Virus record (IMG/VR): IMGVR_UViG_3300027756_000030
Span: 1-34,233 of that record
Reading direction: 5' to 3' (one strand)
From: a virus
Lineage: Duplodnaviria > Caudoviricetes
DNA length: 34,233 nt
How positions within the stretch are numbered: the first letter of the stretch is position 1; each line of letters begins with the position of its first letter. This document shows positions 3,522 through 16,037 of the stretch, piece after piece. Position numbers and translations under genes: made by a program. The notes under the pieces were generated by a model. The model ran no database searches, had not been told where the DNA came from, and saw nothing but the letters and a program-made list of their open reading frames with translations.

Positions 3522-3696
3522 GTTTGTGTTGGCCCGCCCTCCCCATTCTATTTCATAGGGAATACATACATAAGAGAGATGAATAAATCGTTATCTAATC
3601 GTTATACAACTAGGGCGTGTCGTGTTGAGGTTTGTCGGTGGGTGTGCCTATTATTAACTCATCAAGCCAAATTGGTTTGATAGATAGGGGAAGCAA
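3522..3696 (+). promoter_or_regulatory. conserved upstream element copy 2
   Basis: GTTTGTGTTG 3522; GTTAT-N6-GTTAT 3590-3605; GTGTC 3617; TGTCGGTG 3633; -10 TATTAT 3649; hairpin 3661-3681; GATAGGGG. Confidence 0.85.
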
Positions 3697-3900
3697 GTGT
3701 TATTAGAAATAGGTCAGAAATACACTACTCAAGTGAGTGGCGTAAATGGTTGGATTATGGAGATAGTTCCAAATCGCACTGGTTCTTTCAGATTGCGACT
3801 ACGCACCGAGGATAACGAAATCCGTTGGACTACTTATGTTCCACCAGTAGTTCTTGATTATCCTTGTGGCGATTTCATAGGTGAGGGGCTTATCAAATGA
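3697..3900 (+). CDS. hypothetical protein
   Basis: GTG start after a strong RBS; 67 aa. Confidence 0.75.
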   Translation: MLLEIGQKYTTQVSGVNGWIMEIVPNRTGSFRLRLRTEDNEIRWTTYVPPVVLDYPCGDFIGEGLIK

Positions 3901-4221: not shown

Positions 4222-4234
4222 CCAGCTCAGCGAG

Positions 4235-4268
4235 CGCGGTCTCTCACTTCCCCGAGAGATCGCGTTTT
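4235..4268 (+). terminator. intrinsic terminator, operon 2
   Basis: CGCGGTCTCTC-acttcccc-GAGAGATCGCG-TTTT. Confidence 0.75.
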
Positions 4269-4283: not shown

Positions 4284-4457
4284 GTTTGTGTTGAGACCCG
4301 CCCACCCTGTCTCTGACTTACTTCGTAAGGGAGTTGTTGGAGAGAGATTGTTATCAAATTGTTATAAATGAATGGCGTGTCGGATTATGTATCTATCCTT
4401 GCCAATGGTAATTTTCTCTCAACGGCAATCCCGCCGTCTAGTAGATAGGACTAGATT
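4284..4457 (+). promoter_or_regulatory. conserved upstream element copy 3
   Basis: GTTTGTGTTG 4284; hairpin 4317-4329; GTTAT-N6-GTTAT 4350-4365; GTGTC 4377; TGG-TAATTT with the -10 at 4409; hairpin 4422-4437; GATAGGA. Confidence 0.85.
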
Positions 4458-5351
4458 ATGAATAAAGAATTAGTGGAGCGTATCAACGCTTTAGTAGTTG
4501 AGCAATTGGAGAATGGTATCGCGCCATGGTCTAAGCCATGGAATTCAAGCGGATATATGCCAATGAGCCTAACAAGCAATAAAGAATATTCGGGAATAAA
4601 TTCCCTACTATTGGCAATATGTGGCGCACAATATAAGCGGTCTCTATGGGTCACTTATAAGCAAGCGCAGGCCCTAGGCGGCAACGTACGCAAGGGAGAG
4701 AAGAGTCTGCCCGTCGTGTATTGGTCACGCATCATCAAGCCCGGCGAGGATGGCAAGCCCGTCTCTAAGGGAGCTTTCATGAAATTCTATAGCGTGTTCA
4801 ACGTTGAGCAATGCGACGGGATTACTATCCCCGCAATTTACGACGTCAAGCGCGAGCCCGTTGCTACTATCCCCGCATTGGATGCGATAGTGGCCGCATA
4901 TGCTAGCAAGCCAGAGATTTACTATAAGGAGCAAGGCCGCGCCTACTATGACATGTTGGCCGATTCGATTACCTTGCCACCGTTGGCCGCATTCGATAGC
5001 GCAGAGAGTCACGCTTACACTCTATGCCACGAGATGATTCACTCTACCGGTCACCAATCACGCTTAGACCGATTTAGCGAGGATGATAAGCCCGCACGAT
5101 TTGGAGATGCTAACTATGCCCGCGAGGAGCTAGTTGCAGATATCGGGGCGCAGATGCTACTTAGTGCCAATGGGATCACCGTTGACATGCAGAATTCAGC
5201 ATCATATATCGCTGGTTGGTTAAAAGCTTTAAAGAATGATCCAAGCTTGATCATCAGCGCCAGCGGTAAAGCTCAGCGGGCCGCGGATTACATCCAAGGT
5301 ACCAGCCGCGTAGAAGCTAGCGCGACGATCGCAGAAGAGGTGAACGCATGA
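4458..5351 (+). CDS. ardC: ArdC-family antirestriction protein (ssDNA-binding domain plus zincin-like MPTase domain)
   Basis: PWSKPW, YSGIN, WVTYKQAQALGGNVRKGEK, VFNVEQ, HEMIHSTGH (HExxH), YAREELVA, SASYIAGWL. Confidence 0.92.
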   Translation: MNKELVERINALVVEQLENGIAPWSKPWNSSGYMPMSLTSNKEYSGINSLLLAICGAQYKRSLWVTYKQAQALGGNVRKGEKSLPVVYWSRIIKPGEDGKPVSKGAFMKFYSVFNVEQCDGITIPAIYDVKREPVATIPALDAIVAAYASKPEIYYKEQGRAYYDMLADSITLPPLAAFDSAESHAYTLCHEMIHSTGHQSRLDRFSEDDKPARFGDANYAREELVADIGAQMLLSANGITVDMQNSASYIAGWLKALKNDPSLIISASGKAQRAADYIQGTSRVEASATIAEEVNA

Positions 5352-5506: not shown

Positions 5507-5523
5507 ATCTTCCCTATCAGAAG

Positions 5524-5573: not shown

Positions 5574-5726
5574 GTTTGTGTTGGCCCTCCCACCCCTTTC
5601 TCTTCCAGAGGGATAAGTAAGTAAGAGAGCGACACGCCGTATGTGGGTCAATACACGGAATTGTCGGTGGTAGGCACTATGTTTATCTCAATGCCAACAA
5701 GGGCAGACCCTGATAGGAGAAAACAA
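5574..5726 (+). promoter_or_regulatory. conserved upstream element copy 4
   Basis: GTTTGTGTTG 5574; CGACACGCC 5630; TGTCGGTG 5662; -10 TATGTT 5678; hairpin 5692-5705; CTGATAGGAG 5710. Confidence 0.85.
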
Positions 5727-6143: not shown

Positions 6144-6152
6144 CCCTATCGG

Positions 6153-6203: not shown

Positions 6204-6370
6204 GTTTGTGTTGAGCAACCCACCCTCCCAGCTCTATCCCTAAAGGGAATAGGGAGGAGAGAGAGCGACACGCCGAAGGTAGCCAAATGCCATAGATTGT
6301 CGGTGCTAGCCACTAAAGTTATGCCAATGCCGAAAGTCGGCAGGATTGCTAAAGATAGGAGTTATACCAA
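6204..6370 (+). promoter_or_regulatory. conserved upstream element copy 5
   Basis: GTTTGTGTTG 6204; TCCC-taaa-GGGA; CGACACGCC 6266; TGTCGGTG 6298; -10 TAAAGT 6314; hairpin 6328-6342; GATAGGAG. Confidence 0.85.
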
Positions 6371-7087: not shown

Positions 7088-7253
7088 GTTTGTGTTGACC
7101 CACCCTCCCCTTATCCCTTCGGGATAGGGTATTGAGAGAGATGCGACACGCCCGACACGCCCTAAACGCCAACATCCCACACTTATCCAAGCGTGATGGT
7201 AATTTTCTCTTACTGGGCAACACCGCTCAGTAATCCTGATAGGAGATAGTTAA
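7088..7253 (+). promoter_or_regulatory. conserved upstream element copy 6
   Basis: GTTTGTGTTG 7088; TATCCC-ttc-GGGATA; tandem CGACACGCC 7144 and 7153; TGG-TAATTT with the -10 at 7200; hairpin 7210-7233; CTGATAGGAG 7236. Confidence 0.85.
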
Positions 7254-7733
7254 ATGACTGTAAAGGAAAACCTTACAGTTGGGAGAGGTGTTGAGAGCCT
7301 AAACGCACTCATTAACTCTTTCAAAGATAACCAAGAGTTTGCCCCTGAATTAGTGGCAGATATGGCAGAAGTAGTTTCTGCTGACCTACAAGTCCGTGAT
7401 TACCTTATGGGCTTACCGCTTGAATTATCCGTAATGGATAGTATCCGCTTCGCAGAAGCCATTATTCCCCTAGTGGAAGAGAAGCACCGCACCCCTTGGT
7501 ATGCCGTTCTATCGGCTTACCATTACGAGAATGGCGATACCCCTACCGCCTATCTCGCACTCACCGAGTGCCTAAAGTTGGCACCCGATTACTCACTAGC
7601 AAAATTGCTAACACGAGTGTATGGCTCAGGTTGGCCAGCACCAGCGTTTGCAAGTATGCGTGACGAGTTGCACCCAAAGGTCAAAGCGACCATAAGTGAA
7701 ACCGCAAATGACTTTATCTCTCCTATCGAGTAG
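7254..7733 (+). CDS. DUF4192-like protein (C-terminal helical region)
   Basis: VRDYLMG, AVLSAYHYENGD, PDYSLAKLL...GWP resemble the actinobacterial DUF4192 C-terminus. Confidence 0.7.
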   Translation: MTVKENLTVGRGVESLNALINSFKDNQEFAPELVADMAEVVSADLQVRDYLMGLPLELSVMDSIRFAEAIIPLVEEKHRTPWYAVLSAYHYENGDTPTAYLALTECLKLAPDYSLAKLLTRVYGSGWPAPAFASMRDELHPKVKATISETANDFISPIE

Positions 7734-7863: not shown

Positions 7864-8019
7864 GTTTGTGTTGAATGCCCACCCTCCCATTCAACCCTAA
7901 AGGGTTATATATAAAAGAGAGACGACACGCCGAGAGCCTGGCATCCCAGACTTTTACCTGGATGGCCGTACCTTTGTCTCAGTGGCAAAGCGCCACGTTT
8001 TTTCCTGATAGGAGAAGTT
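7864..8019 (+). promoter_or_regulatory. conserved upstream element copy 7
   Basis: GTTTGTGTTG 7864; AACCC-taaa-GGGTT; CGACACGCC 7923; -10 TACCTT 7969; hairpin 7982-7996; CTGATAGGAG 8005. Confidence 0.85.
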
Positions 8020-8887: not shown

Positions 8888-9141
8888 CACTTAAAGTAGT
8901 ACCTGATCAATTAGAGAGAGGCCTACGTGGCACTCACTTACAAAACGGAGCGCTGTGTATAGCTGTAGCTCCTCATAGATATGATGGAGAGTTCGTTGTA
9001 TTAGCTTTCCGCGATCACCCAGTGGATCCATATGTAGTGTGGTATTCGGACTCAGCTGGCAATTGCTGGCAGGGTGACTACTGCACAAGCTTGATGTATG
9101 CCTCTGCACGCTTTTTTGAGAGAGCGGGGGTGAGTGCGTGA
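8884..9141 (+). CDS. hypothetical protein
   Basis: 85 aa, coupled ORF; PYVVW...GDY. Confidence 0.75.
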   Translation: MTLKVVPDQLERGLRGTHLQNGALCIAVAPHRYDGEFVVLAFRDHPVDPYVVWYSDSAGNCWQGDYCTSLMYASARFFERAGVSA

Positions 9142-9467
9142 CCATCCAAAACAAGGCTATGACCGATGAGAGTATCAGCTGGGGAGAGCTAGCTGAGCTC
9201 ACACACGTTACCCAGGTAGAGAGATTCGGCTTTTGTATGTGCGAAGATGCACCCAAGGCCTATTCAGACTGCCCGCGCAAGAGATCCGAGATCGACGACC
9301 TGGTCGATAGCTATGTAAACACGCTAAAAGATGGCCAAGACGGCCACGACGGTCAAGCTTTGGACCTGGTTCAACAAATAATAGCTATGGGAGGCGAAGA
9401 AGCCACCGATGGTGAATGTTTGGACCTGATCCTGGAAGTATTGACTGAATGGAAGAGATACTACTAG
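9138..9467 (+). CDS. acidic hypothetical protein
   Basis: 109 aa; GTGA overlap. Confidence 0.75.
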   Translation: MTIQNKAMTDESISWGELAELTHVTQVERFGFCMCEDAPKAYSDCPRKRSEIDDLVDSYVNTLKDGQDGHDGQALDLVQQIIAMGGEEATDGECLDLILEVLTEWKRYY

Positions 9468-9476
9468 TCTAATCTT

Positions 9477-9515
9477 CTCGCCCCAGCTGCGACCTATCAC
9501 GCGGCTGGGCGCGAG
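9477..9515 (+). terminator. hairpin ending operon 7 (no U-tract)
   Basis: CCCAGCTGCG-acctatca-CGCGGCTGGG with an outer CTCGC/GCGAG stem. Confidence 0.55.
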
Positions 9516-9549: not shown

Positions 9550-9967
9550 GTTTGTGTTGGCCCACCCACCCCATTTAATGGGAATATATATAGCTTGAGA
9601 GAGGAGTGTGAGAGAGAACACAGCTGACAATGCTTGACAAAGCTGGACCGGCCGTGATAGCCGGCTAAGTAGCAATTGTCGACAAAGCTACTTATCGATT
9701 CCGGCTACTGCCAAAAGTCGACAAAGCGACACTGCGGATATGGCCAGATTTACAGCTATTCAGCTGAGAGAGCTATCTGATAGGAGAGAGTTGCCAGGAG
9801 AGAGAGAGAGTAGCTCCGACACGCCGAGAGAGAGATCTATCCTAGATACTAGGAATATGGGTAGTCGGAGGGTATTGTCTCCCTTGTAAGCCATAGGTAT
9901 CTATATGCCTATCCAGTAATCGATATACGATTACCGCGAAATTAGCTTACAGATAGAAGATATACCA
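9550..9967 (+). promoter_or_regulatory. conserved upstream element copy 8 (expanded)
   Basis: GTTTGTGTTG 9550; CCCAT-tta-ATGGG; about 200-nt insert; CTGATAGGAG 9777; CGACACGCC 9817; -10 TATTGT 9873; branched leader 9885-9951. Confidence 0.75.
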
Positions 9968-11628: not shown

Positions 11629-11913
11629 ATGGCAAAGAAAGTTAACTATACCTTTAGTGCAGATCTAACAAAGAACACTGAAAAGGGTGGGGCATGGATT
11701 GGGCATTTCGTTATTCGTGATGATCAAGAGAGTGCACCCAAAGGTCAATTCAAAGCATGGGCTAACGCCTCGGCCGGCAAGCGTTGGTTAAAGGCTATGG
11801 CCGCTGAGCACACACCTCGCAAAAGTGTAAAGCTTGAAGCAGGAGAGACGTTGGATGAGAAAGGTAAGCCAGTATCATTCAAGGGCTCATTTAATTATAA
11901 AGGAGAGGCGTAA
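11629..11913 (+). CDS. basic hypothetical protein
   Basis: 94 aa, AWANASAGKRW. Confidence 0.8.
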   Translation: MAKKVNYTFSADLTKNTEKGGAWIGHFVIRDDQESAPKGQFKAWANASAGKRWLKAMAAEHTPRKSVKLEAGETLDEKGKPVSFKGSFNYKGEA

Positions 11914-12074
11914 TGGATATTCTGCCTGATCCAATAATTGAACCCGTCTTCCCCAGCATCCGTAGAGAAGATATTGATGAAGATGAAGATGATGATTTCG
12001 AGATTGAAGAAGATGATGGTGATTACGATAAGCATGCCCTTGACGAGACACGTTTTGGGTTCCAACAAGATTAA
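11913..12074 (+). CDS. 53-aa extremely acidic peptide
   Basis: ...EDIDEDEDDDFEIEEDDGDYD...; AAAGGAG RBS, TAATG overlap. Confidence 0.65.
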   Translation: MDILPDPIIEPVFPSIRREDIDEDEDDDFEIEEDDGDYDKHALDETRFGFQQD

Positions 12075-12083
12075 GGAAGAGAC

Positions 12084-12287
12084 ATGGTAGCTGGAGACTT
12101 TTTAGGACCCTCAATTTATTTGGGCATTATGGCAATAATTGGAGTCTTTGTTCGCCCTCATTGGAAGAACATGGATAACTTTACAAAGACTGTCGTTGGT
12201 TTCTTACCGGCATTGGGAGTTGTGGCATTTTTAGCTTTAATTGTAGGAGTACTTATCGGTTACGATCCGTACCCTATTATTCCGTAA
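12084..12287 (+). CDS. small two-helix membrane protein
   Basis: Two hydrophobic segments; AAGGA RBS. Confidence 0.75.
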   Translation: MVAGDFLGPSIYLGIMAIIGVFVRPHWKNMDNFTKTVVGFLPALGVVAFLALIVGVLIGYDPYPIIP

Positions 12288-12296
12288 TCTTAATTG

Positions 12297-12390
12297 AGCT
12301 ATGAGAGAGTTAAAGCGGTCCTAACCTTTCTTACGCTAAGGATAGTCATGATCGGCTCCTATCAGCCGTAGCTATACCTGCTCTCAAATA
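12297..12390 (+). ncRNA. candidate structured RNA or 3' UTR element with anti-RBS loops
   Basis: TGAGAG 12302/CTCTCA 12381 closing stem; TCCT/AGGA stem with CCTTTCT in the loop; CGGCT-cctatc-AGCCG hairpin; possible -10 TAATCT 12285. Folded by eye only. Confidence 0.45.
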
Positions 12391-12391
12391 G

Positions 12392-12424
12392 AAAAAGCCC
12401 CCTGCATACTCACAGGGGGCTTTT
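12392..12424. terminator. bidirectional intrinsic terminator
   Basis: AAAAAGCCCCCTG-catactca-CAGGGGGCTTTT between convergent blocks. Confidence 0.9.
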
Positions 12425-14570: not shown

Positions 14571-16037
14571 CTAATCTTCTGTTAGATCCTTAAGTATCTT
14601 CGTGGTTTGCTCTTCATTTAAACCTCCAGTTGGGAGCTCATTTAGTATCTGAGCCCTCTCTCCGAAGATGGAACTTAGCACACCAGCCGACCCTTGGCGC
14701 TCCACTGTCATGCGAATAAACTCACGTGAATCGTCTAATTCTTTAGTAGTTTTAATCAATTTAAACAAGCGGTCGATTTCCTGAGAAACGTTAGGATCCG
14801 CGTATCCACCGTTGATTTCTTCAGCAAAACGCATAAAAGCTACACGTTGTCCCTGCATTTCAATGATGGCATTGATTAAACTCTTTAACTGTTCTTTAGT
14901 TTTAACCTCAACCGGAAGCTTAAATGCACAGGTGCTTTGAGGTTTAAAAGCGGGGCAATTAGAAGCTATAAAGCATGTATCGCACACCCTAAGACTGGTC
15001 TGTTGCGACTGGATTACGGGTATGTCTTTAATGACTCCGTGCTCGTCAATTTCAGTCTTTACCTCGTACCCAAACACCGGTAAATTGACAATTTCATCTG
15101 CATTTCGGGGTTCAAGTTTCCGCATCTGTATACCCTTATTATCAGATATGGCAGGGGTAGTTTCCCCACTTTGCTCCACTTCACTCCCATCGCTATTATC
15201 ATATAACAGTGAGTCATCTTCGTTAGGGTTCATTGTATTTATCCTCATCTCAAACTGTTCATATGACCATACAGCAAGCTTGCATACTTCTTTTGGATCA
15301 TCTTCTAATATCAAATCTGCATCGAGCCCAGCCTTCTCATAGACCGGACGATAGCGGGATCTAGCTTGGTCTTTCATCTTCTTTGGGTAACGCACTAGCC
15401 TAGTGCCATCCCAGACTATAGTCTCGCCATGCAACATTGGGGATAGCCACGACAAGGTACTAGCTGACTCAACCTTTACCTGTCGTAGGTTATCTGGCTT
15501 GGCACAACCTAAGGCGTGGAACCTAGTTCCATCCTGTATGACGTGAGCTCTTGTGGCGCTAGCAAGCATGCTGTCGGCTTCAATAGCCTCTCCAGGTATA
15601 GCTATATCCAAATAGGTGTCTACAAGCTTTTTAAGGCCTGTCAAGCGAGTGTGAGGGTTCCACACGGGTTGAAACTTGCCGGGTGGGACCTCGGACCAAG
15701 CCGTCTTTCGTTGTAGCTCTACAAAGTCTTCTGGTACCCACTCGTGGTTAATCTCTGTAAAGGAGGTCAACCGATCAATATTGTTAGCTATAAAATCTTC
15801 GTATTGTGCGGCAAAAATCTCTAAATCTAAACGGTCTAACCGAGTGCCTTTTGGGATGCCCGGGTGTACGTATATGTAAAAGTCTTTACCGAAGTAGTTT
15901 TCTAATAAATAGTCGCTTTTCTTGGGTAGACCGCGTTTTGTCAAACGCCAGTAACTTACCCCTACATGGTTAGCTGTAGTGGACTCTAAAAGTGTCCTAT
16001 TACTTGGCACCTCGGCACCTAAGTAGATAATTTTCAC
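14571..16037 (-). CDS. hypothetical protein; possible degenerate TGT/DpdA-like barrel plus Cys cluster
   Basis: FHALG...SASTLSW...G resembles the H-x-LG...S-x-DSSSW motif; CDTC-x5-C-x8-C in the C-terminal half. Confidence 0.55.
   Translation of the reverse strand: MKIIYLGAEVPSNRTLLESTTANHVGVSYWRLTKRGLPKKSDYLLENYFGKDFYIYVHPGIPKGTRLDRLDLEIFAAQYEDFIANNIDRLTSFTEINHEWVPEDFVELQRKTAWSEVPPGKFQPVWNPHTRLTGLKKLVDTYLDIAIPGEAIEADSMLASATRAHVIQDGTRFHALGCAKPDNLRQVKVESASTLSWLSPMLHGETIVWDGTRLVRYPKKMKDQARSRYRPVYEKAGLDADLILEDDPKEVCKLAVWSYEQFEMRINTMNPNEDDSLLYDNSDGSEVEQSGETTPAISDNKGIQMRKLEPRNADEIVNLPVFGYEVKTEIDEHGVIKDIPVIQSQQTSLRVCDTCFIASNCPAFKPQSTCAFKLPVEVKTKEQLKSLINAIIEMQGQRVAFMRFAEEINGGYADPNVSQEIDRLFKLIKTTKELDDSREFIRMTVERQGSAGVLSSIFGERAQILNELPTGGLNEEQTTKILKDLTED

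Follow-up and report, generated by a model that had tools for sequence, protein, structure and literature searches.

A conserved structured RNA of lake actinophages with a loop complementary to early-gene ribosome-binding sites

Early-gene units and the RNA at their 3′ end

The window, the whole stretch of DNA that was analyzed (34,233 nucleotides), is a linear virus record that is 36% complete. Its ribonucleotide reductase (RNR) has a 70.5% match to Actinomycetia phage DSL-LC01, from which we infer an actinobacterial host. From 2.7 to 12.3 kb, the + strand carries a series of short transcription units, which are marked by TTTGTGTTG (7 copies versus 0.38 expected) and by promoter-like boxes resembling GCGACACGCC (9 copies versus 0.88 expected), and are also delimited by terminator-like hairpins. 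These units, which include the gene of an anti-restriction protein (phrog_7245, ATG at 4458), presumably comprise the early genes. The replication genes occupy the − strand as far as the hairpin at 12393-12424, where they end. Between 2700 and 9900, a cassette order is repeated: a terminator is followed by TTTGTGTTG, CCCACCC and an AG-rich tract, and then come a GCGACACGCC box, which can have either orientation, a 5′ hairpin, and a ribosome-binding site (RBS) with GATAGG. The short, very acidic ORF at 11913-12074, which has no match in PHROG, is found directly 5′ of the RNA described below in many lake relatives. A queuine tRNA-ribosyltransferase-like gene (14571-16037, phrog_887) may have a role in 7-deazaguanine DNA modification.

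The RNA element at the 3′ end of the early region has the following parts:
12305-12385, + strand: core of the family RNA, from fold, covariation and the covariance model R1
12305-12310 with 12380-12385, + strand: stem P1, from fold and covariation
Between P1 and P2 of the core, + strand: junction strand J1/2, UAAA, from the fold
12315-12317 with 12334-12336, + strand: stem P2, from fold and covariation
12318-12333, + strand: loop L2, with CCUUUCU at 12325-12331, which repeats the last letters of the actinobacterial 16S tail and recurs in the family as a motif
12339-12341 with 12377-12379, + strand: stem P3a, with bulged A12376, from fold and covariation
12342-12346 with 12371-12375, + strand: stem P3b, from fold and covariation
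12347-12370, + strand: internal loop resembling a kink-turn, in which CAU-GA(U) at 12347-12352 faces UA at 12369-12370; the U at 2n is non-standard
12353-12357 with 12364-12368, + strand: stem P4, from the fold
12358-12363, + strand: loop L4, CCUAUC, complement of GAUAGG; opening of the closing pairs would lengthen it to 10 nt (12356-12365)
12393-12424, both strands: bidirectional intrinsic-terminator-like hairpin, the likely 3′ end of the transcript, outside the conserved family core

A preliminary description of the window had given this RNA a possible −10 element of its own (TAATCT at 12285). We reject this element, and a promoter of its own has no support: the hexamer overlaps the stop codon of the ORF at 12084-12287, it is absent in the closest relative (L123), and the listing of promoter-like sites has none at 12285. 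The RNA is more likely co-transcribed with the last operon of the early region. Also rejected was a small ORF within the element (7 codons from 12301), which has no RBS and is not conserved. In metatranscriptomes (8 of 18 runs, as contigs that carry no strand, end or level information), the early genes are covered and several contigs end at 12299-12321. None of the contig pieces listed spans the RNA; since assemblies would break at variable loops or structure, we give this observation no weight in either direction.

A conserved three-way junction and its distribution

The closed multi-stem at 12305-12385, previously folded by eye, is both the minimum free energy (MFE) and the centroid fold. 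It forms a three-way junction closed by P1, with linkers YAAA, YA and one of zero length, and its P3 is broken by a bulged base and then by a CAY-GA/NA internal loop. The z score of −4.6 for 140 nt takes in the terminator. Because the 85-nt core alone reaches only −1.6 (14 of 200 shuffles were equally good), the fold rests on covariation and not on energy.

The first homologs were found beside the RNR gene in relatives. Junction-based patterns returned 48 and 11 viral loci, and the alignment A1 contains 43 distinct rows, including the window; five loci with unpaired stems (L206, L211, L228, L239 and L256) were left out by eye, and R1 later gave each of them at most 17 bits. Across the 43 rows, 13 of 19 pairs changed on both sides, with P1, P2 and P3 covarying. 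Pairing is kept in 93.0% of 815 cells, versus 72.7% in shuffled and 31-41% in slid controls. The search pattern did not include P2, P3b and outer P1, and it partly fixed the invariant junction letters. RNAalifold, unaided, returned an identical fold, and an 81-row alignment fitted to the model retains the covariation. The fold at 12305-12385 is real, supported by strong compensatory changes. Since the pair before the internal loop exchanges between U-G (26 of 43 rows) and C-G (15 of 43), the + strand is favored as the RNA. Both the multi-stem fold of the earlier proposal and a conserved structured RNA on the + strand are thus supported by the homolog alignment.

R1 has a sole match in the window, at 75.9 bits (the window row is itself part of the model). 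Of further pattern loci, it matches 86 in one set of 100 and 56 in another; it finds the RNA at 25 of 80 RNR-relative loci within the flanks examined, and recovers one copy each in 48 of 50 whole records. The 130 distinct copies that we parsed come from lake actinophages, mycobacterial genomes, and cultured mycobacteriophages of clusters K1 and B1, and R1 also matches Mycolicibacterium and Mycobacterium contigs. In Adephagia, the RNA lies between genes 46 and 47 (36023-36118, 40.5 bits); in Suffolk, it lies directly 3′ of the RuvC-like gene 6 (44.8 bits). With these two copies as queries, blastn retrieved 129 and 367 Mycobacterium phage records, respectively, as overlapping sets. None of 101 genomes of the Nanopelagicus order and 3 of 101 mycobacterial-family chromosomes carry the RNA. 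It is likewise missing from five further related phage records, one of them complete; DSL-LC01 lacks it. Given its absence from the 101 Nanopelagicus-order genomes and the five phage records, the RNA is phage-borne and dispensable in some lineages.

In two small integrated mycobacterial elements (L272 and L261), which may be phage satellites, the RNA is directly 3′ of a capsid-like ORF, as judged by eye. L125 and L126 lack the family RNA; the post-RNR position is taken there by another fold, which has three arms and loops with TCCTCATCTCC and TTTCCGTCCCTTCG. The small (~38 kb) lake phages L202, L204, L207, L210, L213 and L249 have a third long hairpin downstream of the RNA, whose loop is, for example, AACCTTTCT or CCGTTC.

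Rfam 15 at the gathering threshold, which includes 6C, C4 and the Weinberg motifs, gave no match in the window or in seven homolog loci, and an E-value scan gave sub-threshold matches only, mostly driven by the terminator. The RNA therefore belongs to no catalogued family. We found no description of it in the literature listings searched, and six family words do not occur in three supplements of PMC10690425, although that paper may still hold an unnamed candidate. Two other searches were largely set aside: a scan of viral contigs for the 14-nt hairpin GGCTCCTATCAGCC gave 119 loci, none extending past the hairpin in blastn or nhmmer, and a loose pattern in genome contigs gave 120 loci, with 4 strong matches among the 100 scored; the hairpin loci and the remainder of the latter were treated as chance.

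Loop L4 and the ribosome-binding sites of early genes

The sites that L4 is predicted to pair with, and a second anti-RBS element, are the following:
2780-2787, + strand: predicted target RBS GATAGGGG, before ATG 2795
3683-3690, + strand: predicted target RBS GATAGGGG, before GTG 3697
4444-4450, + strand: predicted target RBS GATAGGA, before the anti-restriction protein’s ATG 4458 (phrog_7245)
5710-5719, + strand: predicted target RBS CTGATAGGAG, before ATG 5727
6354-6361, + strand: predicted target RBS GATAGGAG, before ATG 6371
7236-7245, + strand: predicted target RBS CTGATAGGAG, before ATG 7254
8005-8014, + strand: predicted target RBS CTGATAGGAG, before ATG 8020
9777-9786, + strand: fourth perfect copy of CTGATAGGAG, no ATG after it, upstream of a promoter-like box at 9816
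9477-9515, + strand: second anti-RBS element, a very stable hairpin (z = −6.7) with loop ACCUAUCA (9492-9499), after the stop of the ORF at 9138-9467

The GATAGG core precedes all seven cassette-first early genes, and L4 is its exact complement. CTGATAGGAG occurs four times on the + strand (5710, 7236, 8005 and 9777) and once on the − strand, at 12356-12365; the mean expected by chance is 0.04, and five copies were reached in 0 of 100 shuffles. The four perfect complement sites of the preliminary description are all present, but only three precede an ATG, and the one at 9777 is probably not an RBS. Similarly, the proposed 10-nt anti-RBS loop is a perfect complement of these sites, but only CCUAUC is unpaired, as the other 4 nt close the stem. 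Duplexes of L4 with an energy of −9 kcal/mol or lower are predicted for 8 of the 33 early starts, versus 1 of the 41 starts on the minus strand and 10 of 386 starts of the candidate host Nanopelagicus. This host set stands in for the actual host; it comes from a Nanopelagicus genome, of which 400 kb were used (20 regions of ~1.0 Mb).

In an early comparison of 41 low-GC members with at least 4.4 kb upstream, which are not independent of each other, P4 had 1.51 start matches per phage in its own phage versus 0.77 for the P4 of other phages. For the main test, we extended 14 regions, built an RNR tree, collapsed the members to 29 phage groups, and picked starts heuristically, leaving the loop out of account. 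The design of the test followed a first look at overlapping data. Matches of L4/P4 of at least 7 nt to own-phage starts amount to 31.6 versus 17.4 expected, an excess of about 1.8 times (permutation over 29 groups, median P = 0.008, range 0.002 to 0.032). Coding windows, used as a control, show none (7.2 versus 6.5), and scrambled P4 gives 10 matches versus 35 for the real one. The excess persists when the window’s group is removed (P = 0.017) and when only the loop ± 1 nt is used (P = 0.008), is weaker after removal of the three GATAGG groups (P = 0.07), and is not significant for the RNR clade alone at 8 nt (P = 0.07). By group, 19 of 29 follow the expected direction, and 10 of 29 have fewer own-phage than other-group matches.

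Loop classes are scattered over the RNR tree, and the RBS switches with the loop class in four orthologue clusters: CCGAAGGG in L149 and L419 versus ATGATAGG in L394 and L410; TGATAGG in the window, L394 and L410 versus GAAGGG in L240 and L434; GAAAGGAAG in L218 and L222 versus GAAGGG in L230 and L240; and GGCAAGGG in L210 versus TAGGGAG in L242. There are also exceptions: L215 has four start regions with CGATAGG and a non-matching L4, and L245, L213, L249 and L175 are further ones. Hence the pairing of L4 with the early RBSs of its own phage, as first proposed, has comparative support, but of moderate strength and with exceptions. What is new is that L4 is the complement of GAUAGG before all seven cassette-first genes, and that, on moderate comparative evidence, the loop appears to read the extended RBS and to evolve with it across lake actinophages.

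Of the 5 phages with this L4, 4 have strong hairpins with CCUAUC loops (8 copies, in two clades only), as against 0 of 20 others. One of these hairpins is that at 9477-9515, which has counterparts in L123, L394 and L410. The CCCUUC class shows no such enrichment of CCCUU-loop hairpins (3 in 12 phages versus 3 in 6). Of 8 early units, 4 have CCTATC at the 3′ end (5513-5518, 6145-6150, 7722-7727 and 9493-9498), a pattern less clear in relatives. The mRNA of such a unit could thereby pair with its own RBS by folding back, as type I toxin mRNAs do. At 4226-4266, a strong hairpin with the loop ACTTCCCC, shared with a hairpin of L240, is complementary to the GGGGAAG RBS of its unit (gene at 3697).

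Possible functions and related systems

As the best reading of these data, held with moderate confidence, we propose that the RNA is an antisense damper of early-gene translation. It would derive from the last early transcript, as its 3′ end, and the fold and terminator would let the RNA survive decay. The 6-nt L4 loop would kiss GAUAGG, after which two closing pairs could open to extend the duplex to 8-10 bp. Loading of 30S would be blocked on the first gene of each early unit, and the resulting repression would become negative feedback as the RNA accumulates, with L2, the copy of the 16S tail, as a possible second seed for canonical AAAGG-type sites. Besides the comparative data, it is favored by the place of 76 of 118 members close behind a stop codon, by the Adephagia copy in an early-transcribed region (below), and by the precedent of B11/6C. 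Against the damper we count the 10 groups without own-phage excess, the K1 and B1 mycobacteriophage loops, which vary freely and do not match the repeated RBS motif of cluster K (below), the limited presence of the RNA in relatives (25 of 80 RNR-relative loci within the flanks examined), and the invariant junction bases, which antisense pairing leaves unexplained.

The RNA would thereby work like known small RNAs with anti-RBS loops. C4 antisense RNA of phages P1 and P7 has several stems, and it controls one immunity operon through single-stranded parts that base-pair around the RBS of a phage mRNA. The window RNA is likewise phage-encoded and multi-stem, with a loop predicted to pair with RBSs, but up to seven separate early units share its target. 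B11/6C, a mycobacterial small RNA, represses host mRNAs by pairing of two pyrimidine-rich loops with the RBS, either loop being sufficient (PMC10470900). The window RNA shares with it the actinobacterial setting, the two pyrimidine-rich loops and the RBS complementarity. In contrast, B11/6C is host-encoded and consists of two simple hairpins with C runs in both loops, and the window RNA is a three-way junction of a phage with variable, U-rich loops that do not have this pattern.

The loop L2 points in a different direction. CCTTTCT at 12325-12331 equals the last 7 nt of CCTCCTTTCT in the Nanopelagicus 16S gene, which confirms the letters of the 16S-tail match reported earlier. In 100 of the 130 copies, retained after lenient clustering and still related, CCTTTC is found in 25 L2 loops versus 1.7 expected (32 of 100 for either loop), and TTCAT, the complement of AUGAA, in 18 versus 3.5 expected. 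L2 as a binder of own-phage genes was rejected, with 0 matches of at least 7 nt to starts in the window and a non-significant P2 (L2) result in the group test (29.6 versus 22.4, median P = 0.09). A MazF-decoy reading was set aside as well, as MazF is specific for UCCUU and L2 of the window is without it. The scaffold could instead be a host-directed mimic of translation initiation that shows 16S-tail (CCUUUC) and anti-AUG (UUCAU) seeds, with the phage RBS match being secondary. These loop counts favor it, although they are not independent, as do the shifts of the motif between L2, L4 and the downstream third hairpin, and the variation of the loops between K1 and B1 phages that are otherwise nearly identical. 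Before the 386 Nanopelagicus starts, the commonest hexamer is AAAGGA (16 versus 1 in coding controls), which also speaks for the mimic, but AGAAAGG, the exact complement of L2, precedes just 2 of these candidate-host starts, and a host mimic does not explain why L4 tracks the phage RBS classes. We therefore regard it as unlikely. TGATAGG precedes none of the 386 starts; on this stand-in host, L4 would thus distinguish the sites of the phage from those of the host, and canonical sites could be within reach of L2.

The conserved scaffold itself might be the functional part, with the junction and kink-turn-like loop binding a factor or stalling nucleases as a structural, protein-binding or 3′-protecting module and the loops merely pyrimidine-rich. 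Its junction bases are invariant and do not covary (in part fixed by the search pattern), and 76 of 118 members start at most 21 nt from the upstream stop codon. Among 123 members, the internal loop has the standard tandem GA/GA kink-turn pattern in 65, UA in 45, CA in 12 and AA in 1, a pattern partly imposed by the regular expression; with UA, the window copy is not a standard kink-turn. Actinomyces-1, drum, HOLDH as well as RAGATH-18 are bacterial motifs that contain a kink-turn, structured noncoding RNAs in which a 3-nt bulge is followed by G·A pairs (PMC8191799). By sequence, the window RNA resembles them in this arrangement, but it has UA in place of GA on the non-bulged strand and no Rfam match. 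The two variable loops, which differ in length and sequence, are U-rich and 64-66% pyrimidine. However, specific loop words are far above composition, and the own-phage excess found at RBSs, not in coding windows, and lost when P4 is scrambled, makes a purely structural role improbable.

A cis-acting role is very unlikely; in the window, it would amount to fold-back on the RNA’s own operon. Downstream contexts vary: among 114 members with enough flank, a terminator-like hairpin follows in 29, a same-strand gene within 150 nt in 36, and neither in 49. In some relatives, the RNA precedes a gene with a loop-matching RBS, for example in L187/L192, where L4 matches the next RBS across 10 nt, and the P4 own-gene match sum is 172 versus 153.5 (P = 0.001, inflated by near-duplicates). 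In the window, however, a terminator follows the RNA, and the operon to which it belongs has as its first RBS GATAGAAG (before 9968), which the loop matches imperfectly. The least probable alternative is an activating adaptor, whose L4 would bind the phage RBS and another part recruit ribosomes or protect the mRNA, raising early expression: the complementarity data are identical, the conserved scaffold shows two loops, and early leaders have 5′ hairpins beside the RBS, but L4 covers the Shine-Dalgarno and would block 30S binding by an established small-RNA mechanism (e.g., B11), and L2, having the same polarity as the 16S tail, cannot pair with it.

The early sites of the window resemble the start-associated sequence (SAS), GGGATAGGAGCCC, a repeated extended RBS before non-structural genes of cluster K mycobacteriophages with a single reversed copy per K1 genome, for which an RNA or protein binder was proposed (PMC3203893) and whose role is still described as “not known” in PMC11373665. 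They share the GATAGGAG core, GATAGG stands at the RBS position before the seven cassette-first, non-structural genes, and there is one reversed perfect 10-mer; the 13-bp consensus itself is not found, as the sites read CTGATAGGAG(A) and the flanks differ. In Adephagia, the stretch examined has 16 forward SAS and 1 reversed SAS (record 58682-58694). Unlike in the window, the reversed copy is in the loop of another long hairpin. We rejected the family RNA as the cluster K anti-SAS, as no loop matches SAS in Adephagia and three other K1 phages; loops of K1 and B1 vary freely without a SAS match. The hairpin with the reversed K1 SAS (L597:38660-38716; Adephagia ~58660-58715) lies in the gene 92-93 gap, where a late transcription start has been placed (PMC11373665). 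After gene 6, the B1 phages L598, L599, L600 and L601 have two P4 alleles, one of which shows CACCTTTCT, near to the 16S tail. The Adephagia RNA copy is in sense orientation inside the gene 44-65 region, for which higher transcription early in infection is reported (PMC11373665).

Combining these observations, we tentatively suggest a widespread phage RNA scaffold that can be re-targeted, with two loops that would act as swappable seeds for own extended RBSs, 16S-tail-type RBSs or AUG; together with the anti-RBS end hairpins, it might form an RNA-only timer of early shut-off and the missing reader of SAS-like motifs. The repeated extended RBS of actinophage early genes has been unexplained since 2011 (PMC3203893), and a reader RNA loop offers comparative evidence on it in lake actinophages. 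The scaffold is unannotated in cultured mycobacteriophages (367 records by the Suffolk copy), so that deletion and assay are feasible in M. smegmatis now. To our knowledge, the phylum of the actinobacterial hosts is generally said to lack Hfq, and in such a phylum a compact scaffold with swappable seeds is a possible gene-silencing tool. In Adephagia, gene 39 has an Hfq-like structural match (PMC11373665, Table 1), and its product could be a chaperone for such RNAs in cluster K.
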